A stretch of 64,000 nucleotides of DNA from an uncultured Pseudomonadales bacterium (GCA_964574595.1 CAZNOF010000001.1:9586-73585); one strand, 5' to 3'. Numbered from the stretch's first letter, positions 42,089 through 64,000 are shown. Program-made: numbers and translations. Notes: a model not told the origin generated them from the letters alone.

Positions 42089-42805
42089 ATGAAGAGTATT
42101 TATAGTATTGGAACATTGCAACGAATCCTCGATCACTGGGGCGTGGGAAAAATCTTTGATGCTACGTACTTCAGTTTTGAAGGACGAGCAATTTGGCGCC
42201 AGTGGATTGAAACAAACCAAGGCGAATTTGAACTGTACTCATATCCAGATGCTTCTGACCCGTATTATGAAAAGAGGTTGACTGAATATTTTGAAACGCA
42301 TCGAGGTCAAATTAACCCAAAATTAGTTCACAGTTTTGACCGATATCACAAGCTTGTGAGGATGAGTACCAAACAGCAAATTTCAGCTAAGCAAGCAATG
42401 ACCGAATTTGAAGCCTTAAAAACACTGTCGATCGTCAAGGCGTTTAGAGTGTATGGATCAATTATTCAAATTCAATTTTCTAAAGATGCTGTCATTTCAT
42501 CTTACGCACATTGGGTTTTGCAAAAAAATACTGACGCAAAAACAGAAATTCTTGTTGACTCTTGGACTGCTTCAATAGAGGAAATGGATGCAGCGATGAC
42601 CGAATTTGAGAATAGCCAAGCACCATTTGAGAAGGCAGTAATTAGCGCTGACCAAGTAGAACTTTTTTTCTCTAAAAAGTATTTGCTTGTTCTTCAAAAA
42701 GAATCAACATTCCCTGCCATGACTCTTCATATTGATGGGCGTCAAAATTGGATGAATATTTTTGACGAGCGAAAAATCTTTTATAAAAAAGATCTTATCT
42801 CCTGA
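42089..42805 (+). CDS. hypothetical protein
   Basis: 238-aa ORF. No family recognised. Confidence 0.45.
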   Translation: MKSIYSIGTLQRILDHWGVGKIFDATYFSFEGRAIWRQWIETNQGEFELYSYPDASDPYYEKRLTEYFETHRGQINPKLVHSFDRYHKLVRMSTKQQISAKQAMTEFEALKTLSIVKAFRVYGSIIQIQFSKDAVISSYAHWVLQKNTDAKTEILVDSWTASIEEMDAAMTEFENSQAPFEKAVISADQVELFFSKKYLLVLQKESTFPAMTLHIDGRQNWMNIFDERKIFYKKDLIS

Positions 42806-44045
42806 ATAAATTTCTGAATGAGTCGATCAATCTTTGGAAGAAATTACCGTTACTCCCAGGTGTTGGGTTTGGCAATGAATTACTGCCCGGAACTGTACTG
42901 GCTTTAGGAGTAGCTTGAATACAAGCTGCTGAATTGGATTCAACCACATAACCACGGTCAGTATCTGATTGACCACAGCCGATATTTAAACTCCAGCGAG
43001 AGCAAATGTTTCCTAGTCCAAGCGTAATTGATTGTTGTGGTGCTAACACCTTACTTCCACTTTGATTCAAGTTGGTCTTGCTGAAGGTGTTCAGTGACCA
43101 ATTAAATTGTTGTGCAGAACTGCCAGTGTTTTGAACTTGGAACATACCAGTTGTTGTCCATTTTGTAGAGTCTGGATAAGGCACAACTTTAAAGTTTTTC
43201 ATAGCACATTGAATTTGTGTAGACGGAATGGTTGGACTTGGTTTCACTACAACTGGACTTGGTGTTGGTCTCATACTTACTACGGGTGTTGGACTAGCAA
43301 CTGGTCGGGTTGATGGACTTACAGATGGAGTGACCACCACAATTGGGCTAGCAACTGGAGAGACTCTTGGTGAGGCTATTGGCGAAGCAATTGGTGAAGC
43401 CACTGGTGTTGGCGTTGGAACTACAACCACTGGGCTGGCGATTGGAGAAGCTACGGTCGTGGGAGACGGTGATGGAGATGCTGGATTTGCAAAAGTGAAA
43501 ACAGCCGTAGGTGTAACTCCCAGCAAATTCTGACCAGTCACACTCTGCAAAATCTTAGAATAGTTCTCATCAACAGCAATGCTCATGGTTCCGGAAGCAG
43601 GCACCGTGAATCGCAATGTAGCGAGTGGGACGACTGCATTGTTAGGGTTAAAGGGTGTTTGTGGATCTTTTGTAATAAAGGCTAAAGTGAGTTTTTTGCC
43701 GCCATTGGCATCGACAATTGTTGAAGCCACAGAATTCAATGCAGAAAAAGTTTGAGGTTCAACTGTGATCGCCGGTACATTGCCAGAAATGTTGGCAATT
43801 AATTGAAAGCCATCCACGTTGGAGGCTCCGGTGCCACTTGCACTAATAGTGATAGCTTCAACAGTCCCAGGTTTCAATGTAGTTCCAGATTGACTCTGAA
43901 AAGTGAACTGAGCTGTCCCTGTTAACGTTGAAGCTTGCTGCCTCAGATCAAAATTATTTTTTAAAAAGTAAGCGCCCAGCATGGTGGCGGCAACCATGAC
44001 AATCAACGAAAGTGCTGTGAGTTTTTGACGATATGTTGTGTTCAT
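42795..44045 (-). CDS. secreted protein with Pro/Ser/Val-rich linker
   Basis: Signal/anchor helix. ~60-aa SP(I/V)ASP repeat linker. Cys-containing C-terminal domain. Confidence 0.55.
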   Translation of the reverse strand: MNTTYRQKLTALSLIVMVAATMLGAYFLKNNFDLRQQASTLTGTAQFTFQSQSGTTLKPGTVEAITISASGTGASNVDGFQLIANISGNVPAITVEPQTFSALNSVASTIVDANGGKKLTLAFITKDPQTPFNPNNAVVPLATLRFTVPASGTMSIAVDENYSKILQSVTGQNLLGVTPTAVFTFANPASPSPSPTTVASPIASPVVVVPTPTPVASPIASPIASPRVSPVASPIVVVTPSVSPSTRPVASPTPVVSMRPTPSPVVVKPSPTIPSTQIQCAMKNFKVVPYPDSTKWTTTGMFQVQNTGSSAQQFNWSLNTFSKTNLNQSGSKVLAPQQSITLGLGNICSRWSLNIGCGQSDTDRGYVVESNSAACIQATPKASTVPGSNSLPNPTPGSNGNFFQRLIDSFRNLFRR

Positions 44046-44092: not shown

Positions 44093-47000
44093 TTAATACT
44101 CAATTTGAGATGGATCAGTGACAATGATTTCTGGATCTTTGCCTTCTGGCCAATACAAACTGACTTTACCCGTGACAGAAATTTTCTTGCCTTTTAATGA
44201 TAGCGGATCATATAAGAATTTAGAGCTGTCTTTAGCAAATACACGGATCAAAAGATGACCATCATGTGGATCTGTAAATGCTAAGTAAATACCCTTTGGC
44301 ATATGGTTTACAGCTGATTTGATCACTCCAGTAACTTTTACGGTTTTACCAATATGTTTTAATGCCTCGGTATGAGAAATGACTTTTGGTGCCTCCGTGG
44401 TCACGCCTAAAACCTTTGCTGATTGAGTCTCCGGAGTAACTGCTTGACTCGTTGCTCCAGGGTTGCCGTTTTCTAAGACTACCAGTCCCCCATCGTTAGC
44501 TTTGACGAGTACCATGCCATCACTGACGACTGCAAATGGTCTTGATCCGTCATTGTGATCATTGTGATATTCGTAGAATCCGGCTGGATAACCTCTCTGG
44601 TCTCCATATGAGTACAAGCCTGCACTGCAATATCTTGTTGTACTGTTAAATTGACAGTTTGATGGACCATATGAGTTTGAATTTCCGCCTGGGAAAAGTT
44701 GTGGGTTACAACCACTGTCACTTGCTGGACAATAGACCTGTCTCCAAATCACGAATGGAGCGTCCACTGTTTTAATTGGATTGGCAATCGTGGCACCTAA
44801 TCCTGCACTGCGATCGACGATTTGTTCAGCTGTATTCACAAGCCAATGGCTATGGAAAATAATGTCATTAGACATACTCAGATCAACCATTTCATCAGTT
44901 TGAATATCTGGATTTCTGACGAATCGCACATCTCCGGCTTGGTATCCACTCACAGTTGTATTATCTAGAACCATCTCACCCATGTTAGCGTCTTCTCTTC
45001 CATCACACCACCCAGTGCCACAAGCTTGTTTATTTCTCCAAATGATATATGCCACTTCTTTGCCGTCAGGGGTGACTCGAATCACAGGTTGTGGACCCAT
45101 TGGTAAGAAGCCGCCATCACCTTCTGCACCATTTCCGACTAAAGGTGTAAATGCACTCTTTCCATCATCTAACTTAAGGGCAAATAAGGCTTGTTGATCG
45201 GGTTTACCAGTTAGATTGGCACGAATATCGGCCAAGTTGTCTGGGAATGGATTCCATGTCCAGATGGTATCCCAATCTAATCTGTAACGAATGAAGACAA
45301 TTCCATGACCCTCGGCAATTACTGGCCAGCCATCCTCGGCTTGAGCACCAGTGCTGTTTGGGTCTCCAGGTTGATAGTTGCGGGACGTTGGTTTCGTCTT
45401 CCATTTTTCGATACCAGTGTTGGCATCTAAAGCGTGAACATTCAAATCCCGTGTGACAACAATGAGTGAGTTCTTGCTGGTAGAGTAAGAAAGCGGCGTT
45501 GCTCCAGGAGAATTAGTAGCATACTCCCAAGTTTTGGTCATACTGCCTGTATCAATTGCGTCAATCACACCAGTCGCTCCAATTACATACAGTTTGGAGT
45601 TCACCAGTGTTGGAGCTAAGTTAAGAGCCGCTGGTGCTTTAAATGTACCCGCAACTGCTCCAGTGGCGGCATTTAATTTATAGACATTACTATCGCCTGA
45701 CGTGACATAGAGGAACTCACCCGAGTACGCCGGTGTTGAAGACAACGTTCCGATTGAACCTTTTTGCCAGAGCACATTGCCATTTGCTTTGTTTAGAGCA
45801 AAGACCTGATCTCCAGCAACCATATAGACTCTGCCTCCGCCGGTAATTGGTTGTACGTATTCAGGAACAGTGATGTGGTTTGCTTGTTTCTTGCCATTCG
45901 CATCTGCACCATTCCACTCCCATTTAAACTTCCATGGTGTTGGAACTGACTGAACAGTGTAGTTCGTGTGTTGTGGATTTTGACCAAATTGTGTCCACTC
46001 CCCTGCCTGCGCTGCTGGAATGGTTGTAGCAACTGGTGATGGTGATGTTACGACCACAGGAGTAGGTGTAGGTGAAGCTACTGGAGATGGAGATGCTTTT
46101 GGTGTTGGCGTTGGTGACAGTTTAATAACTGGACACGTCTTGAACATAGATCTTGTCAGAATAAAGTAGTCACTGAGATCAGCAATGTTCTTTGGATCTT
46201 TGTCGATGTTGGATCGAGGATTGGAAAGAGTATCTTTCAAATAGTCTTTGACTAGTGCCTGGTAGTCAGATATATCCACCAAACCATTTCCGTCAATATC
46301 AGCATCACATGTGCCCGCTGCCGCGGTAGGAGACGGAGACACTGCTGGTGATGGCGAAGGACTTGGTGAAGGGATTGGAGAGACGCTTGGTGTTGGATTT
46401 GGTGCAGTATATGAAGAGTTGCGAATCTTTAAGGCCACATCCTTCGTTAAATTTGAAACTGTTGCTGTTAAGTTGCCATCAGCACCAACCGTGACATTGG
46501 CTTGGGAGGTTGCACCAGTGGTGGTGTTCCAAGTTTCAACTGTGTATGCCCCTGCTGCCATGCCAGGAATCGTAAAAGTTCCGTTAATTGCTGTCGGTGT
46601 TCCACTGTTTTGCCACCTTGAATCTTTGTGCTGAACCCATGCATAAGCATGCTGGTTATTTGCTGCCTTCATTAAGAGGACGCGCATTTTGGCATTGCTA
46701 GCTGAGATAGTTTGATTTGAGAAAAGGTTTATGTCTGCCGTAGATAAGAAGGTAAATTGAGCAGCGTCATAATCGATGTCTTTAAAGAAATTGCTTGCCA
46801 CTTTGCGATCCGCATATTTCTGTGCCAAGTAGTTTTGTTGTTGGAAGAACCAGTCAATTGGTGATGATCCAGCAACTGAGAATAAGCCTGCCCAAAGCCC
46901 ATTGTGTGCAACGAGTGGGTTTGGTGTACCAGGGTCATTCCAATCTGGTCCACTTGAATCAAACTCACCCCAATAGATAGGCTTTTGTGCGCCTGTCCAT

Positions 47001-48361
47001 CTTGATCCATCGCCAAAGAAACAGTTAGTGGTACCTGGGAATCGTAGACATTGAGCTGCCCTGTACAAGAAGTTTGTTTCGTCACCAAACAAGTCTGCTG
47101 GGTAACGTGAGGACATTAAGTAGTCGTGATAACTTGTTATATCCATCATTGAGTTAGAGAAGAAGGCTGGACTGTACGCTTGTGATCCTTGAGAAGTGTT
47201 AAAAAGATGATGATACGGGTCGATGGATTTAACGTAAGATGAAAGCGTTTGATACCAGTTCCATTGATCTGTTCCTGCAGGGATATGACCTTCCTCATTC
47301 CAGTGCTCTATGACACCAACGGATGTTGAGTACCCCCAACGGGCTATTCGGTAGCGGTAGTTTCTTTGCCAATATTTCAGGTACTGTGGGTTTTTGTAAT
47401 CTGTTCTATCAACATCCCAAATCCAGTAAGGATCTTCATGACTGTTCCAGACAATATAGACACCGTTCCGCTCAGCTGCTTCAGCGATCTTGTCAAATTC
47501 ATAACCACCGCGTTGGTTCATTTGTGATCCCTTTGGGATACTGTTAAATCCTGCAGTACCTTCAGGATTAAAATCATCGGGCCATTTGTAATGGTCATAA
47601 TGACCCTCAACAGTCAAGTTATATCCATCGTTCTGTGTCCAAATTCTAAGAAAGTTAATGCCGTTTTGTCCGTAAGTATTAAAGAGATCTTCATACTCAT
47701 AACTTCGACCATTAGTTGCTGGCCATTGATGACCACTGGCAATTGGTACGAACGCCTCGCCGGATGATAAAGATAAAAAGCGACTGTCTTTTGGTGAGAC
47801 ACGTAGGAAACCTTTGTTGTTAGAGTTTGCAACTTGGAGTGTTTGTGTTCCTGTCGTGGGATATCTTGTCGTCCCATCTTTATCAGCAACAGAAATATAG
47901 TATGTATAGTTGCCTACTTCTTCTGGTGTAAAACGGACGCGCCAATCATAATTGTTGGTCGGTGTCATTATTTCATCACCATTGCCTGACTTTGTTCTCG
48001 TGTAGTCTTGATAGTAAAAAGCTGGAACTGTCAGATTTTTACCTGATGGAGACGTAAAGATGGCGTTGACGGTAATACCATCTACTCCGTATGGAGATAA
48101 TCTACCTGGATTGGCAGCTGGAGTATCGGCAGCATCGTAAAAGTAGTAAGGCAAGAAGGAGCCTTCAGCGAATGGTCGGGACAAAGTGAAAGCCATTTCG
48201 AATTTTGAGAGTTTTGCTACTGTGGTCGGTGCCGATTTAATCGCTGTAACAGTTGTAGCGGCGAAAATCTGTGAGGTGGCGAATGAAAAGAAAGCGAGGG
48301 CTAAAAATAAAACGCTGACGGCGCGTTTAGATAACACAGAAAGTTGGCTCTTGAACCTCAT
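44093..48361 (-). CDS. giant (1422 aa) secreted multidomain protein: glycoside-hydrolase-like region, dockerin-like Ca-binding repeat, PQQ-like beta-propeller
   Basis: Signal peptide. (beta/alpha)8-like stretch (FLRIWTQNDGYNL, WNEEGH). DIDGNGLVDISDY dockerin/EF-hand-like loop. 4+ repeats of the ...G.VYALDA.TG..LW.. PQQ/BamB type. PT/PS linkers. Confidence 0.65.
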   Translation of the reverse strand: MRFKSQLSVLSKRAVSVLFLALAFFSFATSQIFAATTVTAIKSAPTTVAKLSKFEMAFTLSRPFAEGSFLPYYFYDAADTPAANPGRLSPYGVDGITVNAIFTSPSGKNLTVPAFYYQDYTRTKSGNGDEIMTPTNNYDWRVRFTPEEVGNYTYYISVADKDGTTRYPTTGTQTLQVANSNNKGFLRVSPKDSRFLSLSSGEAFVPIASGHQWPATNGRSYEYEDLFNTYGQNGINFLRIWTQNDGYNLTVEGHYDHYKWPDDFNPEGTAGFNSIPKGSQMNQRGGYEFDKIAEAAERNGVYIVWNSHEDPYWIWDVDRTDYKNPQYLKYWQRNYRYRIARWGYSTSVGVIEHWNEEGHIPAGTDQWNWYQTLSSYVKSIDPYHHLFNTSQGSQAYSPAFFSNSMMDITSYHDYLMSSRYPADLFGDETNFLYRAAQCLRFPGTTNCFFGDGSRWTGAQKPIYWGEFDSSGPDWNDPGTPNPLVAHNGLWAGLFSVAGSSPIDWFFQQQNYLAQKYADRKVASNFFKDIDYDAAQFTFLSTADINLFSNQTISASNAKMRVLLMKAANNQHAYAWVQHKDSRWQNSGTPTAINGTFTIPGMAAGAYTVETWNTTTGATSQANVTVGADGNLTATVSNLTKDVALKIRNSSYTAPNPTPSVSPIPSPSPSPSPAVSPSPTAAAGTCDADIDGNGLVDISDYQALVKDYLKDTLSNPRSNIDKDPKNIADLSDYFILTRSMFKTCPVIKLSPTPTPKASPSPVASPTPTPVVVTSPSPVATTIPAAQAGEWTQFGQNPQHTNYTVQSVPTPWKFKWEWNGADANGKKQANHITVPEYVQPITGGGRVYMVAGDQVFALNKANGNVLWQKGSIGTLSSTPAYSGEFLYVTSGDSNVYKLNAATGAVAGTFKAPAALNLAPTLVNSKLYVIGATGVIDAIDTGSMTKTWEYATNSPGATPLSYSTSKNSLIVVTRDLNVHALDANTGIEKWKTKPTSRNYQPGDPNSTGAQAEDGWPVIAEGHGIVFIRYRLDWDTIWTWNPFPDNLADIRANLTGKPDQQALFALKLDDGKSAFTPLVGNGAEGDGGFLPMGPQPVIRVTPDGKEVAYIIWRNKQACGTGWCDGREDANMGEMVLDNTTVSGYQAGDVRFVRNPDIQTDEMVDLSMSNDIIFHSHWLVNTAEQIVDRSAGLGATIANPIKTVDAPFVIWRQVYCPASDSGCNPQLFPGGNSNSYGPSNCQFNSTTRYCSAGLYSYGDQRGYPAGFYEYHNDHNDGSRPFAVVSDGMVLVKANDGGLVVLENGNPGATSQAVTPETQSAKVLGVTTEAPKVISHTEALKHIGKTVKVTGVIKSAVNHMPKGIYLAFTDPHDGHLLIRVFAKDSSKFLYDPLSLKGKKISVTGKVSLYWPEGKDPEIIVTDPSQIEY

Positions 48362-48962: not shown

Positions 48963-49982
48963 TTACACAAATTGTTCGTGATAAGCTACTATCGCAGCTT
49001 GAGTTTGTACGGCTTTAACGGCAAATTTACCGATGGTTGTTTCTTCGGAAAGCATCACAGCGTTTGTTCCATCGTAAACAGCATTAGCAATATCGTTCAC
49101 TTCTGCTCTAGTAGGTCGTGGGTTTTCCACCATAGAGAGTAACATTTGGGTAGCAGTGATCACAAATTTGTTTGCTTCATTACACTTTTTGATAATCACT
49201 TTTTGCCAGTGAGGAACTTCGTAGAATGGCAACTCTACACCTAAATCACCACGTGCCACCATGACAGCATCAGCACTTGCGATAATTTCATCCAAGTTAT
49301 CAATGGCCTTTTGGTTTTCAATTTTGGCTACGATTTGTGCAGTAATGTTGTTCTCTTGTAGTTTCTTTCTGAGTAACTCAATGTCAGCGGCACTTCTCAC
49401 AAAGGAAAGAGCCACATAATCGATTTCTGTACCAGCTAAAGATGTTAAGTAAGTCTCATCTTTTTCTGTGAGTGATGGCATATTTAGTACCACACCCGGT
49501 GTGTTCATGGTTTTACTTTGTTTCACTGTACAATCGTAGACAGAAGTACAAACTAATTTACCTGCCTCTTTTGAGGTTATGGTGAACTCGCATGCTCCAT
49601 CTGCTAATAAAATTTGATTGCCTACATTTAAACTATCAATGACATCTGCTGGAACGATGACGACTCGTTGGTTGTCACCAGCATCGACCACAAATGAAAC
49701 TTCTTCACCTTTTTTTACTTCAAATGGTGTGCCGTTTGGGATAGCGATACGAACTTCAGGTCCTTGGAGGTCCATCAGGACTTTAGTATTCATGCCTAAA
49801 TCTTTTGCTACTTTTTTCACACGGAGCATTCGTTCTTGATGCCAGTCTGGCAAGTTATGCTTGGTGTTGAAGCGGGCGACATTCATACCAGCCTTCATCA
49901 ACTCTGCTAATGCATTTTCACTTTCAGATACTGGTCCAATAGTGGCGACAATTTGTGTTTTGCGCTTTGATAGATCGATCAT
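48963..49982 (-). CDS. pyk: pyruvate kinase (short form lacking the C-terminal regulatory domain)
   Basis: TKIVATIGP-like N-terminus ([11 protein letters not shown]), [10 protein letters not shown] active site. 339 aa. Confidence 0.85.
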
Positions 49983-52806: not shown

Positions 52807-53721
52807 TTAAGAGTAACTCTCCTTTAATAGCTCAATCACTTGTTTCAAACTCAATGAAGTGGGTCGTTGGTTTCGATGTTTTTTTGAGCCGTTGAGTAAC
52901 ATCTTACCACTTGGGTGATAGTACCAAGTCCCAGCAGGATCGAGCTTGAGAATTTTTTCATGAACCACTTTCAAATCTAGGTCAGCGTCTGGTCTGGCTT
53001 TAATTCGAACTTCTCCACCCGTGGGATCTTTTCTAACTACGACCATGTATCCAGATTTTTGAGCGAACTTAATGACCTGGTCATTTTTACTTTCAATTCC
53101 TAGAGCTTTGCCAACTTTCAAAGTGAATTCAGTACCAGCCGAAATGGAGTCACGAGCTTGGAAAGTTTCTTTGAGTGCTGCATATGCTGATTCAAAACAG
53201 TGTATGCCAAATTGTAATTGAGAATCATCGTCATGTAGACCAAGGGACTCAAATCCACCAATTAATTCATGAATCATAAAACAGTATTTTGGTGAACCTG
53301 AATCGTCCCAATATATTTCCTCAAAGTGATCAATCTGTGTAACAAACTCCACAATATATTTGAGCGCTTCATCGTTTTTTAATTCTGGATGCAATCGGCA
53401 AGCGTAGTCGTAAGTAAGTGAGGTGGCACAGATACGTTCTCTACCCCGCTCTGGTTGATGATGGTCAAATTGGCCAAGACCAGTGTCAACATGGGTCACC
53501 TGGTGCATCTGGAAGCCTAGACGTTCTGCTTCGCTGGGGTTGATTTGGCTACCTGGGTCAACAAAAGATTCTTGGGAGTCGGCGTAGTGTTGGGAATCAA
53601 ATTGTTTTAATACCCATACCGAGCCGATGGCATCGAGGTCTGGGGCATGATGGGTCACGATGAGTCTTTTTTCCATGTCTTGATTATAGCAGTTTAGAAA
53701 GAATAGTTTTCTACGGTTCAT
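52807..53721 (-). CDS. DHH-family phosphoesterase (NrnA-like)
   Basis: Motif I HHAPDLDAIGS, motif III GQFDHHQ. 2-nt gap to the HIT gene. Confidence 0.65.
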   Translation of the reverse strand: MNRRKLFFLNCYNQDMEKRLIVTHHAPDLDAIGSVWVLKQFDSQHYADSQESFVDPGSQINPSEAERLGFQMHQVTHVDTGLGQFDHHQPERGRERICATSLTYDYACRLHPELKNDEALKYIVEFVTQIDHFEEIYWDDSGSPKYCFMIHELIGGFESLGLHDDDSQLQFGIHCFESAYAALKETFQARDSISAGTEFTLKVGKALGIESKNDQVIKFAQKSGYMVVVRKDPTGGEVRIKARPDADLDLKVVHEKILKLDPAGTWYYHPSGKMLLNGSKKHRNQRPTSLSLKQVIELLKESYS

Positions 53722-54316: not shown

Positions 54317-55765
54317 TTAGTAGGACTGAGCAAATAACCATTGGTGCGTCGCAGGTTTGCCACATTTGATACAAGTACCTTGTTCTTCTTTCACATTTCC
54401 TTCTTCGTCAATAAATGGCAGACAGCGAGTACTGGCTTTGGTCTCGTCTTTAATTTGTTTCTCGCAACTACTTTCTTCACACCAAAAAGCTCTGATGAAT
54501 CCTTTTGTAGTATTCATAATATTTTTAAATGATGCGTAGTCTTTCACTTCAAATGTTAGTTTTGCACGACTCTCTACGGCAGTTTGATACATCTTCTTTT
54601 GGATCTCGTTTAAGGCTGATTTAATTGATTCGGCGGCTTTGTCAGTAGAAATAACTTGACTCTGATGGGAGTAACGAACTTTGAGTTGCAATTCTTTGGC
54701 TGCTAATTCTCGCTCGCCTACTACCACTGTTAACGGCACGCCTTGTAATTCAGCATCATTTAATTTCCAGCCCATACTGTAGTTTTGTCGTTTATCAAAC
54801 ACGCAGCGGACATCAATGTCTCTGAGATTTTTTTGAAGTGATTCGCAGTAAGACAAAACTTCTGCATTTTCACCTTTTGCAGGCACGATCACGATCTGGG
54901 TTGGAGCAATTCTTGGCGGTAAGACTAAGCCATCATCATCACCATGCGTCATGACTAATCCGCCAATTACTCTGGTAGAAAAACCAAAACTGGTTTGCCA
55001 AGCATAATCAGTTTTACCTTCCTCATCTTGGAACGCAATGTTAAAAGCATCTTTTTTTGAGAAGTGTTGTGCCAGATCGTGACTAGTTCCGGCTTGCAAG
55101 GCTTTGCCATCAGGCATTAGGGCTTCCACAGTCGTCGTCATTTCTGCGCCAGCGAACTTTTCGGCATTACTTTTACGGCCTTTGATGACAGGAATGGCTA
55201 AGTCTTCTTCTAACACTTTTCGATATGCTTCAAGACCGTCAAGCACCATGGCTATGGCTTCTTCATGTTTTGCATGAGCTGTATGCGCTTCTTGCCACAG
55301 AAATTCAGTTGTTCTTAAGAAGAAATAGGTCCGTTTTTCCCAACGCACCACGTTATTCCATTGATTAAGACTGAGTGGTAAATCTCGATATGACTGAACC
55401 CATTTACTGTACATTTCGTACATGATGGTTTCAGAAGTTGGTCGAACGACGAGTTTTTCGGTCAGTTCCTCACCACCGGCATGCGTCACAACTGCTAATT
55501 CAGGGGCAAAACCTTCCACGTGCTCTGCTTCACGACTCAAAAAGGACAGAGGGATAAATAATGGAAAGTAGGCATTTTTGACACCTAGATCTTTTAATAA
55601 TGGATCAAGTTTCTTTTGAATGTTTTCCCAAATTTCGAAGCCATTTGGTCGGATGACCATGCAGCCCTTGACGGGTGAATAATCAGCTAATTGGGCAAGT
55701 TGAATAACTTGGGTGTACCACTTGCTCATGTCTTCAGATTTTGGGGTCAGTTGTTTTTTTGCCAT
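54317..55765 (-). CDS. proS: proline--tRNA ligase, archaeal/eukaryote-type
   Basis: Class II motifs, no bacterial INS editing domain, C-terminal Zn domain CIKCGK...HQWLFAQSY. Confidence 0.9.
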   Translation of the reverse strand: MAKKQLTPKSEDMSKWYTQVIQLAQLADYSPVKGCMVIRPNGFEIWENIQKKLDPLLKDLGVKNAYFPLFIPLSFLSREAEHVEGFAPELAVVTHAGGEELTEKLVVRPTSETIMYEMYSKWVQSYRDLPLSLNQWNNVVRWEKRTYFFLRTTEFLWQEAHTAHAKHEEAIAMVLDGLEAYRKVLEEDLAIPVIKGRKSNAEKFAGAEMTTTVEALMPDGKALQAGTSHDLAQHFSKKDAFNIAFQDEEGKTDYAWQTSFGFSTRVIGGLVMTHGDDDGLVLPPRIAPTQIVIVPAKGENAEVLSYCESLQKNLRDIDVRCVFDKRQNYSMGWKLNDAELQGVPLTVVVGERELAAKELQLKVRYSHQSQVISTDKAAESIKSALNEIQKKMYQTAVESRAKLTFEVKDYASFKNIMNTTKGFIRAFWCEESSCEKQIKDETKASTRCLPFIDEEGNVKEEQGTCIKCGKPATHQWLFAQSY

Positions 55766-58241: not shown

Positions 58242-58640
58242 TTATAGCCTATTTGCTAGGTGAAGTGACTCAGACAATTGGAGACCACTTTTCTTATCGT
58301 TTTCCAAGAGCGCTTTAAGTTCTTCAAGTGATTGGACTTGGACTGGTGGGCGTTGAAACTTTCGCAAGGTGACTATCAGCTGCTGGTCATAAATTTCTGA
58401 ATCAAGGTCAAAAATATAGACTTCAAAAACGTTTTTTGTTTCTCCAAAGATGAGTCGAGGTCCGAAGTATGGTAAGCAGTCATATGACTTACCTTCAATG
58501 ACACAATCTCCAAAATAGACCCCTGCATCAAGATCTTTAGTAGAAAGTTGCACGTCTAGGTTCGCGGTGGGAAAGCCAATGGTACGGCCAACCTGTTCAC
58601 CATGGATGACGCGACCGGTAATGACCTGAGGCAGTTGCAT
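58242..58640 (-). CDS. riboflavin kinase (RibF C-terminal domain only)
   Basis: VITGRVIHGEQVGRTIGFPTANL flavokinase motif. ORF-track N-terminal extension overlaps secA and was trimmed to Met MQLPQV. Confidence 0.7.
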   Translation of the reverse strand: MQLPQVITGRVIHGEQVGRTIGFPTANLDVQLSTKDLDAGVYFGDCVIEGKSYDCLPYFGPRLIFGETKNVFEVYIFDLDSEIYDQQLIVTLRKFQRPPVQVQSLEELKALLENDKKSGLQLSESLHLANRL

Positions 58641-58650
58641 GAGTTCTCTC

Positions 58651-61632
58651 TTAGCCTCGGTGCCAAGGTGCGTTGACCAAGCCACATAGCTTATACTTGA
58701 ACACTTTGCCGGTTTTGGGATTGATGGCTCCGCATGGACACGGATCATTTCGGCCAATTTTAATCGTGGCAGCTCCAGGTTGTGGTTTCTTAGTGGCTTT
58801 AGCATTGGCAAATGCTGCTGCAAAGTCAGCTGTCGAACCTTTTTGGGTGGCTGGTTTGGCGGTCTTTTGATCTGCAGCAGCTTGATTAACTTGCTGCGCC
58901 AAATCACCAAAGACGCCTTGTTTCTGTTCACGAATTTGACTTGGTTGAATGACAATATTCGGTTGGTCATGAATGTGGACACGGAAGATTCTATTGGCAA
59001 TGGTTGATTCAATACTCTGAATCAGTTGCTCAAACATGTTGAAACCTTCTTTTTTGTACTCACTCAAAACAGTAGACTTATCGCCGCGCATCCAAATACC
59101 GTCGCGCAAATTATCCATTTCGTCCAAATGATCCATCCATTTTTCATCAATGGTTGAGAGCATGACGAATCGCTCCAAGTCACGCATCACCACTGGGTTC
59201 AAGACCTCTTCTCTACTATCGTAGGTGGTTCTGACAATTTCCTTGAGTCGATCGATGATTGCTTCGGCTGATGTATCGGAACTAATTGTTGTTCTTAACT
59301 CTTGTTGTGATCGGTCATCAAAAGGAATAATTTTGGTGAATTCTTTGATGATGGCGTCAAATTCATCTTCTGTGAAGTCATGTGGTGCTCGCGCGCGAAC
59401 CATGTTTTCTACTTCGCTGTCGATGTACTCAATGATTTCCTGTTTTAATGGATCACGTTTCGTGGCTTTATCTTCAGTGGTTGGTTGGGCTTGTTCCAGA
59501 ATTCGGCGGCGACGTTTATAAATAATCTCTCGCTGTTTGTTCATGACGTCGTCAAACTCAACCAGTCGTTTACGTTGATCAAAGAAGAAGCCTTCTACTT
59601 TAATTTGAGCGGACTGAATTGCTGAACCTACCATGCCGTGTTCAATTGGTTGGTCTTCTTCAATTTTTAAGAAGTCCATCATTTTGGAAATTTGAGCTCC
59701 GCCAAAGAGACGCATAATTTCATCTTCTAGAGCAATGAAAAATTGAGAGGAACCAGGGTCACCTTGTCGACCGGCTCGGCCTCGTAACTGGTTATCAATA
59801 CGACGAGATTCGTGACGTTCTGAACCAATGATGTGTAAACCACCGAGCTCAACAACTTCTTGGTGTGATTTGCGCCATTTTTCAACTGCCTCTGCAAACC
59901 CTTCCAAATCATAATTCTCTGGTTTCACAGAAGGTGGCAAGTTTAATTTTTTGATGAGCGCTGGATCTTGTTTCTTTGGTTCTTTCTTTGATTTTGATTT
60001 GTCATCAACTTTCTTGAGTCTGAACTCCTTCAGTTCTGGTTTAGCTCCACCCAAGACGATGTCGACACCACGACCCGCAATGTTGGTGGCCACGGTAATA
60101 CTGCCCTTTTTACCGGCATCAGCGATGATAAAGGCTTCACGTTCGTTGTTTTTGGCGTTCAAAACTTGATGTGGAATGCGTTTTCTTTCCAACATGTCCC
60201 CGATAATTTGGTTGTGCTCAATCGATCTGGTACCAATTAAAAGTGGTTGACCAGTGGAATGATACTTCTCAACTTCTTGGACGATGGCATTGTACTTAGC
60301 GGTCGTTGTCTTATATACCACGTCTGCCATGTCATTTCTGACGGCAGGTACGTTTGTTGGAATTGGCAGCACATCCATCTCATAAATCTTGCGGAACTCT
60401 TCTGCTTCAGTCACGGCAGTTCCAGACATACCGGCTAGTTTGTCATACAGACGGAAATAGTTCTGCAAAGAAATGGTGGCAAGTGTTCTTGATTCTTGCT
60501 GAATTGGCACGTTCTCTTTGGCTTCAATTGCTTGATGGAGGCCATCAGAGTAACGACGACCATACATTAAACGACCAGTATGTTCATCAACGATAATGAC
60601 TTGTTTGTCTCGGACGATGTACTCTTTGTCCCGGCGATATAACGTCTTGGCTTTTAAGGCTGCTTCAACGTGATGAATCACATCAAAACTTTCCTCATAT
60701 AAATTATCCACACCTAATTTCTGTTCCGTTCGTTTGACACCTAAGTCAGTTAGGGTGACTGTTTTTTGTTTCTCGTCTAACTTGTAGTCCACATCATGGA
60801 CGAGAGGTTCTACCATCTTGGCGTAGTCATAGTATTTTTTGGTTGGTTCTGTATCTGGAGCAGAAATAATCAATGGTGTTCTGGCCTCATCAATTAAGAT
60901 AGAGTCGGCTTCGTCAACAATGGCAAAGAAGTGACCATTCTCGTCAGTTCGCTGAACCATTTCAGGTAATTGTTGAACCATGTTGTCGCGAAGATAGTCA
61001 AAACCAAACTCATTATTTGTTCCGTAGGTAATGTCTGCTGCATACGCCTCTTGTCGAGTAATCTCTTGAAAGTGCTCAAGACGTTCGTCGCCGCGATCTT
61101 CACTATCAAAATCAGGATTGAAGAGTCTGGCTTTATCATGAACAATGACGGACACACGCATGCCTAAGAAGTGATAGATCGGACCCATCCAACCCACACC
61201 CACTTCCGCAAGGTAATCATTGGCAGTCACTAAGTGGACACCACGACCCAATAGGGCATTTAAATACAGAGGAGCAGTTACAGTTAAAGTTTTACCTTCA
61301 CCAGTTTTTTGCTCTGTTACAGTGTTTTTATGAAGGGCGATGCCTGCCAATAACTGAACATCGAAATGTCTCATTGCCAAAACGCGGCGGGAAGTCTCTC
61401 TGACAGTCGCAAATGCTTCTGGCAGTAAGGCGTCTAAAATTGTTTCATCAGTTTGACCGTCAGCTCTTTTCTCAATGATTCGTTCTCTAAATTCTTTGGT
61501 TTTACTGGCAAGCTGTTTATCTGTCAGTTTTTTGTAATCAGGTTCTAAAGCATTAATTTGCTCGACTATTTTTTGATATTGGTTCAACTTTCGAGCATTT
61601 TCGTCGAAAATCTTGGAAAAGAAATTTAGCAT
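58651..61632 (-). CDS. secA: preprotein translocase ATPase SecA
   Basis: 993 aa. DEAD-like motor, preprotein cross-linking and helical scaffold regions, C-terminal Zn finger CPCG...KLCG. Confidence 0.95.
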   Translation of the reverse strand: MLNFFSKIFDENARKLNQYQKIVEQINALEPDYKKLTDKQLASKTKEFRERIIEKRADGQTDETILDALLPEAFATVRETSRRVLAMRHFDVQLLAGIALHKNTVTEQKTGEGKTLTVTAPLYLNALLGRGVHLVTANDYLAEVGVGWMGPIYHFLGMRVSVIVHDKARLFNPDFDSEDRGDERLEHFQEITRQEAYAADITYGTNNEFGFDYLRDNMVQQLPEMVQRTDENGHFFAIVDEADSILIDEARTPLIISAPDTEPTKKYYDYAKMVEPLVHDVDYKLDEKQKTVTLTDLGVKRTEQKLGVDNLYEESFDVIHHVEAALKAKTLYRRDKEYIVRDKQVIIVDEHTGRLMYGRRYSDGLHQAIEAKENVPIQQESRTLATISLQNYFRLYDKLAGMSGTAVTEAEEFRKIYEMDVLPIPTNVPAVRNDMADVVYKTTTAKYNAIVQEVEKYHSTGQPLLIGTRSIEHNQIIGDMLERKRIPHQVLNAKNNEREAFIIADAGKKGSITVATNIAGRGVDIVLGGAKPELKEFRLKKVDDKSKSKKEPKKQDPALIKKLNLPPSVKPENYDLEGFAEAVEKWRKSHQEVVELGGLHIIGSERHESRRIDNQLRGRAGRQGDPGSSQFFIALEDEIMRLFGGAQISKMMDFLKIEEDQPIEHGMVGSAIQSAQIKVEGFFFDQRKRLVEFDDVMNKQREIIYKRRRRILEQAQPTTEDKATKRDPLKQEIIEYIDSEVENMVRARAPHDFTEDEFDAIIKEFTKIIPFDDRSQQELRTTISSDTSAEAIIDRLKEIVRTTYDSREEVLNPVVMRDLERFVMLSTIDEKWMDHLDEMDNLRDGIWMRGDKSTVLSEYKKEGFNMFEQLIQSIESTIANRIFRVHIHDQPNIVIQPSQIREQKQGVFGDLAQQVNQAAADQKTAKPATQKGSTADFAAAFANAKATKKPQPGAATIKIGRNDPCPCGAINPKTGKVFKYKLCGLVNAPWHRG

Positions 61633-61653: not shown

Positions 61654-62925
61654 TTAAAAATTGTTTATCAAGGACTTGCCCATGAATGGTTGGAGGACTT
61701 TGGGAATTCGAATCGAACCATCTTCATTCTGATAGTTTTCAATGACTGCTGCAAGTAAGCGTGGTGAAGCAGCCATGGTGTTATTCAGTGTGTAAACGTA
61801 TTTGGTAGAGCCGTCTTTTGCACGGTACTTAATATTTAAACGACGAGCTTGGAAATCGTTAAAGTAACTGGCAGAATGAGTCTCTCGGTATTTTTCTTGA
61901 CTTGGGAACCAGGTTTCCACATCGTATTTTTTGCGTTGACCAGCACCCATATCACCTGAACACATCAATAAAACTTGGTATGGCAGTTCGAGATCTTTTA
62001 AGAGCTGTTCAGCGTACCCCACCATTTTTTGATGCCAATCTCGAGTCACTTCTTCATCTGCGACGGTGTAAATGACTTGTTCAACTTTGGTGAATTGGTG
62101 GACGCGAATAATGCCCTGAACGTCTTTGCCATAGGTCCCAACTTCTCGGCGGAAACATGGTGAAATACCAACCATTTTAAATGGCAGATCTTTCTCATTT
62201 AATACTTCGTCTTGTCTATAAGCGGTTAAAGAAACTTCAGCGGTGCCAATTAAACATTGATCATCTTGAGTTGTGTAATGATCTTCCATTCCCCAAGGGA
62301 AGTATCCGGTGCCCCACATGGCTTCCTTGTTCACCATCCAAGGGACTGTCATTGGGGTAAAGCCCTCTTTGTAGAGCATACTTAAGGCATAATTCAAAAG
62401 TGCTTGCTCGAGTATGACGGCATCATTTTTCAAGAAATATGATCTAAAACCACCGATTCGAACAGCTCTTTTGGTATCGAGCAAATCGTTTTTGAGCATC
62501 AACTCATCATGTGCTAGTGGCTTAAAACTCAGTTTTGGAATTGTGCCAACTTGCCTGACCACTTGATTATCATCTTCATTTTTGCCAACCGGCACATCAC
62601 TCGCAGGAGGGTTTGCCACTTGATACATCAAGTCTTTAAAGGTCTCTTCCACCTGCTTCAATTGAGGTTCGATATCTTGCAGTTTCGCTTTCAAGTCTCG
62701 ACCAGTTTGAATTTGCTCTTCAGTTGGTCGTTTGGTGGCTGATTTTTTGATCTCATCAGTGTTTTGGTTAATCTGTTGGCGGATTTCCTCTACCTGAGCA
62801 ATCAAGGTTCTGCGCTCTTCATCCTTTTCGAGAACGGATTTAACAATAGACGGATTCATCTGCTTATTTTTGATAGCAGTCTCCAACTCTTGTTGATTTT
62901 GGCGGATGTAGGTAATGTCTAACAT
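61654..62925 (-). CDS. serS: serine--tRNA ligase
   Basis: N-terminal coiled coil, class II motif 2 FRREVGTYG, motif 3 region. Confidence 0.9.
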   Translation of the reverse strand: MLDITYIRQNQQELETAIKNKQMNPSIVKSVLEKDEERRTLIAQVEEIRQQINQNTDEIKKSATKRPTEEQIQTGRDLKAKLQDIEPQLKQVEETFKDLMYQVANPPASDVPVGKNEDDNQVVRQVGTIPKLSFKPLAHDELMLKNDLLDTKRAVRIGGFRSYFLKNDAVILEQALLNYALSMLYKEGFTPMTVPWMVNKEAMWGTGYFPWGMEDHYTTQDDQCLIGTAEVSLTAYRQDEVLNEKDLPFKMVGISPCFRREVGTYGKDVQGIIRVHQFTKVEQVIYTVADEEVTRDWHQKMVGYAEQLLKDLELPYQVLLMCSGDMGAGQRKKYDVETWFPSQEKYRETHSASYFNDFQARRLNIKYRAKDGSTKYVYTLNNTMAASPRLLAAVIENYQNEDGSIRIPKVLQPFMGKSLINNF

Positions 62926-62964: not shown

Positions 62965-64000
62965 TTACTTCCTGAAGACTTCAATGAGGAATGCAATGTG
63001 CTCATCAGGGTCTTTGCCAATCAGCTCAAAGCCTTTTTGGATGTCTTCCCGACTCACATTTGCTGCAAAACTTTTATCCTTGAGTTTCTTTTTGACTGAC
63101 TTCGTTTCCATATCAGAAAACCCAGTTGGTCTCATCAATGAAGCCGCGTGCATCAAACCTGACAACTCATCGTTCGCAAATAGGTACTTCTCAATCAGGG
63201 TTTCAGGTTGTGTGCCGGTTCTGTCTGGAGCATGTGCCAAGATGGCGTTCTTCAAAGCTGCTGGGTAGTGAGCAATCAGCTCGCTGACGGCTCGATTTGG
63301 GTGTTCATCTGGGAACATCTCCCAATCCAGGTCATGAAGGAGTCCTGCCTGATACCAGAGCTCTGGATCCTCACCTAAGGCAACTGCAGAAGCTTCCATG
63401 GCGGCAGCTACCATCTCCATATGATGAATTAAGGCTTGGTTTTTGACGTACTGCTCAACAAGCTTTTTCGCTTCTTCTCGAGGAGGTAATGGTTTGTCTT
63501 CGCCAGCAGTAAAGCGGGTTTCTCGAAATGATTCTGAGGCTACTGGTTTGGTTCCAACTGGGTGTGACTCGGCTGTTGCAGCGAGCTTCTCGTTGACTAC
63601 AACTGGATCTGGCATGTTGTAAATCTCTTTGGTGCTTTCGTCTAATTTGTGCTTGAGTTGTGGGAAGAGTGTTCCTTCTCGAGCGGTGACGTTCTCTAAG
63701 AACCAGAAGACGCGTTCACTATGACCGTAACCAGAGGTTGGTGGCATGCCGTATTCCAGCATCTCGACAAAGTCGATGTCCATCATTTGAGCTTCATCAT
63801 CGCCTTCATTTCTGGCGGCTTGTTGTGCTTGGAATCGTTCGAGCTGATCAATCGGATCATTCAGCTCTGAATAGCCGTTTCCTAACTCACTACCAGCAAT
63901 AATGACATGGAAGCGTTGTGTTAAAGAAGGATCATCAATCTTTGATTTGGCCAATGGTGACATAAACTTTGGCTCATTTACTAGGAAAGCTGGACCAGCT
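62965..64000 (-). CDS. lysS: lysine--tRNA ligase (class II), 5' end beyond window; C-terminal HD-domain extension
   Basis: Frame is open to the window edge (...AGPAFLVNEPKFMSPLAK). LysRS C-terminal motifs GSELGNGYSELNDP and GYGHSER...LFP. An extra ~200 aa follows with an HD motif LIHHMEMVAAAME...AGLLHDLDWE. Confidence 0.8.
   Translation of the reverse strand, partial: AGPAFLVNEPKFMSPLAKSKIDDPSLTQRFHVIIAGSELGNGYSELNDPIDQLERFQAQQAARNEGDDEAQMMDIDFVEMLEYGMPPTSGYGHSERVFWFLENVTAREGTLFPQLKHKLDESTKEIYNMPDPVVVNEKLAATAESHPVGTKPVASESFRETRFTAGEDKPLPPREEAKKLVEQYVKNQALIHHMEMVAAAMEASAVALGEDPELWYQAGLLHDLDWEMFPDEHPNRAVSELIAHYPAALKNAILAHAPDRTGTQPETLIEKYLFANDELSGLMHAASLMRPTGFSDMETKSVKKKLKDKSFAANVSREDIQKGFELIGKDPDEHIAFLIEVFRK

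Follow-up and report, generated by a model that had tools for sequence, protein, structure and literature searches.

A lysyl-tRNA synthetase fused to a predicted HD-domain hydrolase, and the labile lysS-HD gene pair of Patescibacteria

At one edge of a 64,000-nucleotide stretch of DNA from an assembly titled uncultured Pseudomonadales bacterium (GCA_964574595.1, CAZNOF010000001.1:9586-73585; this whole stretch is called the window below) lies a gene in which the end of a lysyl-tRNA synthetase (LysRS, encoded by lysS) is followed in frame by an HD domain, the signature fold of a large class of phosphohydrolases. The reverse complement of positions 62965-63999 translates as a single uninterrupted frame of 344 codons on the minus strand. 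The 5′ part of the gene extends beyond position 64000, where the window edge cuts it, and the N-terminal ~355 amino acids (aa), comprising the OB anticodon-binding domain and the remainder of the core, lie outside the window. Following the LysRS core, the appended part is 227 aa long, a linker of ~50 aa leading into an HD domain of 177 aa (residues 168-344 in the visible frame). A preliminary description of this DNA had proposed that the LysRS core extends to its usual end, after which a canonical HD domain follows. The strings that it quoted without naming a strand, SERVFWFLENVTAREGTLFP, LIHHMEMVAAAME and AGLLHDLDWE, are all found in the minus-strand frame, and matches to tRNA-synt_2, TIGR00499 and PF01966 bear its reading out. 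The parts of the gene are listed here, with residues numbered along the visible frame and the numbering within the HD domain in parentheses.

63649..64000, minus strand: last ~117 aa of the catalytic core of a class II LysRS; motif 3 is GYGHSERVFWFLEN, and the core terminates in ...TLFPQLKHK.
63499..63648, minus strand: linker between the two domains, ~50 aa (LDESTKEIYNMPDPVVVNEKLAATAESHPVGTKPVASESFRETRFTAGEDK); variable, with disorder predicted.
62968..63498, minus strand: HD (HDIG-type) domain, 177 aa, all-helical, a predicted metal-dependent phosphohydrolase (PF01966, TIGR00277, family-specific hidden Markov model (HMM), AlphaFold2).
63421..63423, minus strand: His193 (H30), putative first metal ligand; family-invariant and aligned with YqeK His29 (PMC11857287).
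63325..63336, minus strand: His222-Asp223 (the HD doublet) and Asp225, in the motif LLHDLDWE; H222 and D223 align with YqeK H58 and D59.
63301..63303, minus strand: His233 (H70, EHP motif), putative second-metal ligand; invariant.
63232..63234, minus strand: His256 (H93, AHAP), putative second-metal ligand; aligned with YqeK His117.
63169..63171, minus strand: Asp277 (D114, NDELSG), putative last metal ligand; aligned with YqeK Asp135.
63049..63102, minus strand: basic motif KSVKKKLKDKSFAANVSR, a conserved family signature and candidate binding site for a polyphosphate chain or nucleic acid.
62965..62967, minus strand: TAA stop of the fused gene (translation and open reading frame (ORF) list).

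The synthetase part was identified by profile. Pfam tRNA-synt_2 (PF00152) matched aa 3-115 (E 8e-18, profile positions 192-307), and NCBIfam lysS_bact (TIGR00499) matched aa 3-117 (E 9e-37, profile positions 378-494), ahead of genX/EpmA (2e-19), LysX and AspRS on the same fragment. The whole-protein cut-off of TIGR00499 was missed solely because the window contains just one third of the gene. Fused relatives of full length (~700 aa) show tRNA_anti-codon (PF01336), tRNA-synt_2 and HD, with the OB domain present in all of them. These profile matches identify the product of the window gene as a genuine class II lysyl-tRNA synthetase. Two proteins of 569-590 aa with no OB domain listed (P0396 and P0397) were considered as EpmA-like paralogues, and this was rejected as they are truncated calls that start inside the OB domain.

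The C-terminal region passes HD-profile searches, a check that the preliminary description had proposed. PF01966 matched aa 191-278 with an E of 4.7e-6 (27.3 bits against a cut-off of 22), and the family-specific HMM matched the HD part with an E of 4e-70. The HDIG model TIGR00277 is borderline, at 28.7 bits for the HD part alone and 27.3 bits for the whole 344-aa fragment against a cut-off of 27.6; the window has HDLDW in place of HDIGK, and 45 of the 48 family members match this model. The HD part has more than 6,000 homologues, with the family comprising 2,531 clusters at 50% identity at E ≤1e-3 and 855 at E ≤1e-10. Its usual form is a free-standing protein of ~180 aa, and free-standing members of ~183 aa are common in Calditrichota, Thermotogota, Deferribacter (Deferribacterota) and Marinimicrobia. 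Neither Pfam nor NCBIfam holds a model specific to this family; the generic HD and HDIG models alone pass. Below threshold, there are similarities to the HD parts of DVU_1551-type NTP transferases and PRK12703 (Trm56-HD), and to TIGR00295, RNase Y and YqeK.

Within the family, H30, H59-D60, D62, H70, H93, D114, F148 and R154 are invariant in the domain numbering, as are the motif HDxD(W/Y)E and a basic KSVKKKLKDK motif, in and near which S138, K141, K142, K144, F148 and R154 hardly vary, whether the protein is fused or free-standing. The HD doublet and D62 (Asp225) are invariant in 52 of 52 LysRS-HD fusions, H93 and the other putative ligands are likewise kept in all 52, and D114 is kept in 51. 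Of the free-standing members, 390 can be compared at these columns; H59 and D60 are present in every one of them and D62 in 389. AlphaFold2 modeled the HD domain as ten helices with a predicted local distance difference test score (pLDDT) of 96.4. Judged by its residues, the HD domain of the window looks active and is predicted to be a hydrolase. Together, the six ligands (H, HD, H, H, D) would create a two-metal site of the YqeK or PgpH kind, and this dinuclear-type set makes a phosphodiesterase or pyrophosphatase with a nucleotide substrate the most likely identity of the domain, the basic motif perhaps contacting the polyphosphate chain of that substrate or a nucleic acid.

We found the same architecture in many other assemblies. 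One genome per GTDB species was scanned, giving 80 loci whose frames were translated and searched with the family HMM. Ten loci (L006-L015 except L013) encode complete LysRS-HD proteins of ~700 aa that are 48-69% identical to the window; in L013 a contig edge cuts such a fusion short, and L017 is also fused, across a run of Ns. The metagenome-assembled genomes (MAGs) that carry these fusions are labelled Patescibacteria, WWE3, Dojkabacteria and others. Patescibacteria-type LysRS-HD loci (L006, L010, L011, L014, L015, L019 and others) can also be titled Pseudomonadales or Gammaproteobacteria, and such titles look unreliable for taxonomy. Among the 50%-identity cluster representatives, all 10 long hits scanned were LysRS fusions, P0195 and P0232 among them, and a third protein search returned ~22 further fused proteins. 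In total 52 LysRS-HD fusions were collected from independent assemblies, all in frame and with variable linkers. P0391, which the third search found in an ENA assembly unrelated to this one, shares 84% identity with the window over both domains and the linker. In the alignment of fused relatives the linker is 30-55 aa long and poorly conserved, with the frame always kept. An AlphaFold2 model of P0391 gave the linker a pLDDT of <50 and both domains >90, with a predicted template modelling score (pTM) of 0.57, which indicates a flexible tether rather than a docked assembly.

These data bear on whether the fusion could be an artefact, with a sequencing or assembly frameshift, or a missed stop, having joined two genes. 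In its favor, the species-level relative nearest to the window, L018 (86% identity), encodes the two parts as separate overlapping genes, and the closest LysRS proteins (82-88% identity) are unfused. Against it, the window's 50 linker codons run in frame and offer no ATG, GTG or TTG where free-standing HD genes begin (M-x-L-P-x-R), and the fused architecture is shared by P0391 and ~50 others. The in-frame recurrence, together with the missing start codon, makes an artefact exceedingly improbable. The preliminary description had named a frameshift as what might undo its reading; dozens of independent in-frame assemblies spanning 42-84% identity give that no support. The fusion is real, and its domain match is far beyond chance.

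We looked at how lysS and the HD gene are arranged in relatives. Among homologues of the HD part, those nearest to it (70-80% identity) are nearly all free-standing Patescibacteria proteins of 173-180 aa. In L001-L003 the HD gene begins 1-7 nucleotides after lysS, L032 and L036 show short stop/start overlaps (ATGA in L036), and in L018, the nearest species-level relative, the two genes overlap by 26 nucleotides; this abutting or overlapping arrangement suggests translational coupling. In L016 (4774-4782) and L048 (7174-7200) the two genes are in the same frame with a single TAA between them, so a single point mutation would be enough to fuse or split them. UGA recoding was considered as the cause of these apparent in-frame splits and was rejected, the separating codon being TAA. 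At other loci the HD gene lies 0.3-3 kb downstream of lysS, and once upstream (L044, 2084-2728, 2 kb away). The two domains also occur in reversed order in P0195 (715 aa), where HD is N-terminal to LysRS; with L044, this makes the linkage independent of one gene order. Fusions are found on both types of LysRS motif 3: 24 proteins have ERVFWF, the type of the window, and 11 have the canonical DRLVMF.

The gene order lysS-HD-(x)-serS-secA is common to the window and to L001, L003, L004 and L005, the latter four as judged by Pfam labels. In the window this block continues from the fused gene as follows.

61654..62925, minus strand: serS, 39 nucleotides downstream of the fused gene; ORF and member of the conserved synteny block.
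58651..61632, minus strand: secA, next in the conserved block (ORF, synteny).

On a rough neighbour-joining tree of the HD domain, fused domains are scattered among unfused ones, with ~32 parsimony changes (Fitch), a count inflated by tree error and truncated proteins and used solely to show the scatter. The Saccharibacteria-labelled loci with plain LysRS found among L045-L085 have no HD gene within 6 kb. The preliminary description had asked whether the fusion is lineage-wide. It is not, as L018 at 86% identity is unfused and the plain-LysRS Saccharibacteria loci lack a nearby HD gene; the fusion is patchy and evolutionarily labile. As these gene arrangements show, lysS and HD genes have fused and split repeatedly, and the lysS-HD linkage is broad within Patescibacteria, with the window representing the fused state of a conserved two-gene module. 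Beside six free-standing homologues outside Patescibacteria there was no recurrent partner, and none of the six adjoins lysS; NAD kinase, lgt/ruvB, clpX and SIR2 were each seen once nearby.

Other domains are also added to LysRS in these genomes. Many LysRS proteins of Patescibacteria, 720-790 aa in length, end in a B3_4 domain (PF03483, the PheRS-beta editing-domain family), and the HD gene follows immediately or a short distance downstream, as in L001 (3807-5999), L003 (3822-5993), L020 (2378-4681), L026 (5059-7104), L031 (4858-7098) and L048 (4801-7176). B3_4 on LysRS is possibly a post-transfer editing module, and our literature searches returned nothing on B3_4-bearing LysRS. In one Calditrichota genome, a free-standing B3_4 gene (L087, 7911-8582) lies 2.4 kb from an HD homologue on the opposite strand, which may be coincidence. 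All three domains are joined as LysRS-B3_4-HD proteins of 980 aa in L037 (4864-7803) and L041 (4879-7815), and P0232 (1072 aa) combines LysRS, tRNA_bind, B3_4 and HD; unlike all simple fusions, the HD domains of these three have D62 replaced by T or A and D114 by E. Another group of LysRS carries a C-terminal DUF2000 domain (PF09391, E 1e-25 to 1e-28), in L022 (604-2583), L027 (330-2390), L050 (5-1993) and L056 (4870-6855), and the HD gene is 0.3 kb downstream in L027 and 2.3 kb downstream in L056. This DUF2000 domain weakly matches PDB 2gax (Atu0240), which we take to have a peptidyl-tRNA-hydrolase-2-like fold.

To place the HD domain among solved structures, we compared the family profile with the PDB. 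The best five matches were all YqeK (COG1713), the HD-type symmetrical Ap4A hydrolase known from Firmicutes, namely 8jja (1.2e-5), 2ogi, 8wmy, 2o08 and 3ccg (0.0015), and the next PDB family followed with 2pq7 at 0.063, ~40-fold weaker than 3ccg and ~5,000-fold weaker than 8jja. A single-sequence phmmer search of the PDB with the HD part gave no match; YqeK was reached by the family profile alone. In Streptococcus pyogenes YqeK, H29, H58, D59, H91, H117 and D135 coordinate two metal ions (PMC11857287). HMMER pairs H30 with YqeK H29, H59-D60 with H58-D59, H93 with H117 and D114 with D135, while H70 would correspond to H91 by residue order, the two being unaligned. Like the window domain, YqeK is an all-helical HDIG-type domain of ~180-195 aa with the same order of six ligands, and the spacing from the first His to HD is identical in both at 29 residues. 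The segment from HD to the third His, however, is ~22 aa shorter in the window, and the C-terminal half differs and holds the basic KSVKKKLKDK motif. The gene contexts differ too, with lysS for the window domain and nadD for YqeK, though the YqeK substrate is itself a LysRS by-product. From these alignments, the HD domain of the window may work like YqeK, yet it lies outside the YqeK family.

LysRS was the first aminoacyl-tRNA synthetase (aaRS) recognised as a source of diadenosine tetraphosphate (Ap4A) and can add Np4 caps to RNA in vitro; two enzymes, ApaH and YqeK, are known to hydrolyse Ap4A symmetrically (PMC10148737). Because the HD domain is kept beside LysRS or tethered to it, we propose that its substrates would be the adenylyl products of LysRS. 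An HD hydrolase tethered in this way would clear the adenylyl compounds that LysRS makes, Ap4A and related Np4N, and could further act on Np4-capped RNA or stray aminoacyl-adenylate. The module would thus pair a synthesising enzyme with a hydrolase that removes its by-product. We judge it highly probable that the fusion in the window is real and that its hydrolase is active and works in functional connection with LysRS. The statement as a whole, joining fusion and hydrolase to an Ap4A-clearing mechanism, we put forward tentatively, and an Ap4A-type substrate, the simplest reading, is a possibility about which we are a little more doubtful. The preliminary description's guess of Ap4A gains weak support from YqeK being the closest solved relative by sequence. 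It is somewhat unlikely, if conceivable, that this HDIG family represents a third bacterial family of Ap4A/Np4N hydrolases beside ApaH and YqeK, or Np4-RNA decapping enzymes, coupled to LysRS in Patescibacteria.

Several observations weigh against the clearing of LysRS products. The YqeK match is weak, at 28 bits, and falls mostly in the H...HD segment. The window protein does not match TIGR00488 (cut-off 70 bits), and 4 of 48 family members match it with a best E of 2e-4 (~21 bits), far under the cut-off. YqeK Lys62, three residues after the HD Asp and needed for activity, is W or Y here. Foldseek found no close solved structure for the HD domain (best E 7.6e-3, template modelling score (TM) ~0.5), and it placed YqeK (TM ~0.48) behind the GlyRS-beta HD and PgpH, and not above the small alarmone hydrolases. 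Outside Patescibacteria the HD family is unlinked to lysS, so that LysRS cannot be what its basic function requires. The B3_4, tRNA_bind and DUF2000 add-ons are tRNA-directed or plausibly so and favor a tRNA role, fusing abutting co-translated genes could be nearly neutral, and the enzymatic role of every member of the HD family is a predicted one.

The main rival, and a serious one though we consider it unlikely, is that the HD domain acts on tRNA(Lys) or RNA ends and not on a free nucleotide. It might, for example, remove a 2′,3′-cyclic or 3′-phosphate from a damaged CCA end so that LysRS recharges the tRNA, cleave RNA as RNase Y does, or remove Np4 caps. The LysRS of relatives also carry tRNA_bind, B3_4 and DUF2000, in series with or beside the HD gene, yet HD is the constant partner while B3_4 and DUF2000 vary, which argues against simple replacement of one by another. 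The invariant Lys/Arg-rich motif would suit such a substrate, as would weak profile similarities to the PRK12703 HD part (13 of 48 members) and RNase Y (12 of 48), but similarities to RNA-acting HD families are all far under family thresholds. Most members, moreover, are free-standing in phyla without a lysS or tRNA-gene context, and we know of no HD enzyme that hydrolyses aminoacyl esters. The top Foldseek match, the tRNA-binding HD of Escherichia coli GlyRS beta, also fits a tRNA substrate (PMC8464048). The same GlyRS beta precedent and match would fit a non-catalytic domain that aids tRNA binding or regulates LysRS allosterically (PMC8464048). This we regard as very improbable, since GlyRS beta has lost its doublet whereas H, HD, D, H, H and D are kept in fusions and free-standing homologues, and the modeled tether is disordered with no docked orientation predicted.

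It is also possible, if quite unlikely, that the HD protein is a general nucleotide-housekeeping or signalling hydrolase whose chemistry is unconnected with LysRS and whose substrate would be, for example, cyclic di-AMP (c-di-AMP)/pApA, (p)ppGpp/(p)ppApp, dNTPs or NMPs. Adjacency and fusion would then reflect co-expression in an operon and easy loss of the stop codon between abutting genes, a mutationally cheap step given the single TAA or ATGA overlap seen in relatives. The family is widespread in free-standing form with varied neighbors, and the best structural TM is to the PgpH c-di-AMP phosphodiesterase (0.55), with small alarmone hydrolases also matched. These last fold matches are weak, however (TM ~0.42-0.49), and HD_4 (PF13328, RelA/SpoT-type, small alarmone hydrolases) gave no match at E up to 1; in L091, a separate HD_4 hydrolase gene lies 1.1 kb from the HD family member. 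The dinuclear ligand set of the window domain is unlike the mononuclear one of alarmone hydrolases and YfbR-type nucleotidases. Because of this ligand set and the lack of an HD_4 match, a (p)ppApp/ppGpp-type role loses support. Mere operon membership also fits poorly with a linkage that survives changed LysRS type, inserted domains and changed gene order (P0195, L044), and no other neighbor (greA, serS) was ever seen fused.

A repeated domain fusion, in both orientations, is among the strongest clues to joint function that sequence can offer. Here it ties LysRS, the classic source of Ap4A, to a large and widespread HD family without a studied member, and adds an HD domain that is catalytically intact by its residues to the short list of enzymatic modules appended to aaRSs. 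The Ap4A proposal offers a concrete hypothesis for dinucleoside polyphosphate turnover in reduced-genome Patescibacteria, and perhaps in many other phyla. If it is true, an alarmone would be destroyed where it is made, through physical coupling to LysRS, and together with the B3_4, DUF2000 and tRNA_bind add-ons the LysRS of Patescibacteria would be a multi-domain quality-control hub. If instead the substrate is tRNA, the fusion would represent a new tRNA(Lys) maintenance activity. Public databases already contain LysRS-HD fusions, named automatically as, for example, hypothetical protein, lysyl-tRNA synthetase class 2 or predicted hydrolase (HD superfamily); no paper on the fusion or on the HD family was found in the literature searched, with most subscription journals outside its coverage.

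Elsewhere in the window, a TTG-start frame of 256 aa at 58242-59012 (minus strand) overlaps the last 360 nucleotides of secA. Its Flavokinase (riboflavin kinase) match (E 7.5e-27) is confined to the C-terminal ~130 aa, and the real gene there is probably a short flavokinase-only protein that starts just after secA, as in L003, without an FAD-synthetase domain. A ProRS with a ProRS-C_1 domain, which we take as a mark of archaeal/eukaryote-like ProRS, is encoded at 54317-55765 (minus strand), so that three aaRS genes (ProRS, serS and LysRS) lie within 10 kb of one another. Also on the minus strand are a pyruvate kinase of 339 aa at 48963-49982, with the barrel domain (PF00224) alone and without the usual C-terminal domain, and a 1422-aa protein at 44093-48361 with matches limited to PQQ_2/beta-propeller and DUF5060. 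Two further minus-strand ORFs, at 42795-44045 (416 aa) and 52807-53721 (304 aa), gave no Pfam match.

The preliminary description held that aaRS-HD fusions are not standard. This largely stands, but for one precedent, the HD domain of bacterial GlyRS beta, which is tRNA-binding, has a degenerate HD doublet (Ser-Lys) and gave no sign of nucleotide binding (PMC8464048). It is the sole established HD-fold domain inside an aaRS and the top Foldseek match of the window HD. The two differ in setting, the GlyRS beta domain being embedded in the tRNA-binding subunit of an (alpha-beta)2 enzyme whereas the window HD sits on a predicted disordered tether, and in their doublets, lost in GlyRS beta but retained in 52 of 52 LysRS-HD fusions. 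Other HDIG-type domains are fused to a tRNA-modifying enzyme in Trm56-HD (PRK12703) and to a nucleotidyltransferase in the DVU_1551 NTP-transferase-HD proteins (NF045665). These two models are the best non-generic NCBIfam similarities of our HD family (E 1e-7 to 1e-8 over ~100 residues, far under their cut-offs), and their partner enzymes differ from LysRS. A conceptual analogue of LysRS-HD is presumably found in HINT and LysU, where we understand HIT-family hydrolases to act on LysRS-made lysyl-AMP and to bind Ap4A; to our knowledge HINT and LysRS are never fused, and the HIT fold and mechanism are unrelated to HD. LysX (LysRS-MprF, NF002821), like LysRS-HD, joins a complete LysRS to a second enzyme, which in LysX uses the LysRS product. 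That enzyme is a membrane lysyl-phosphatidylglycerol synthase at the N-terminus, whereas in LysRS-HD a predicted soluble HD hydrolase is carried at the C-terminus.

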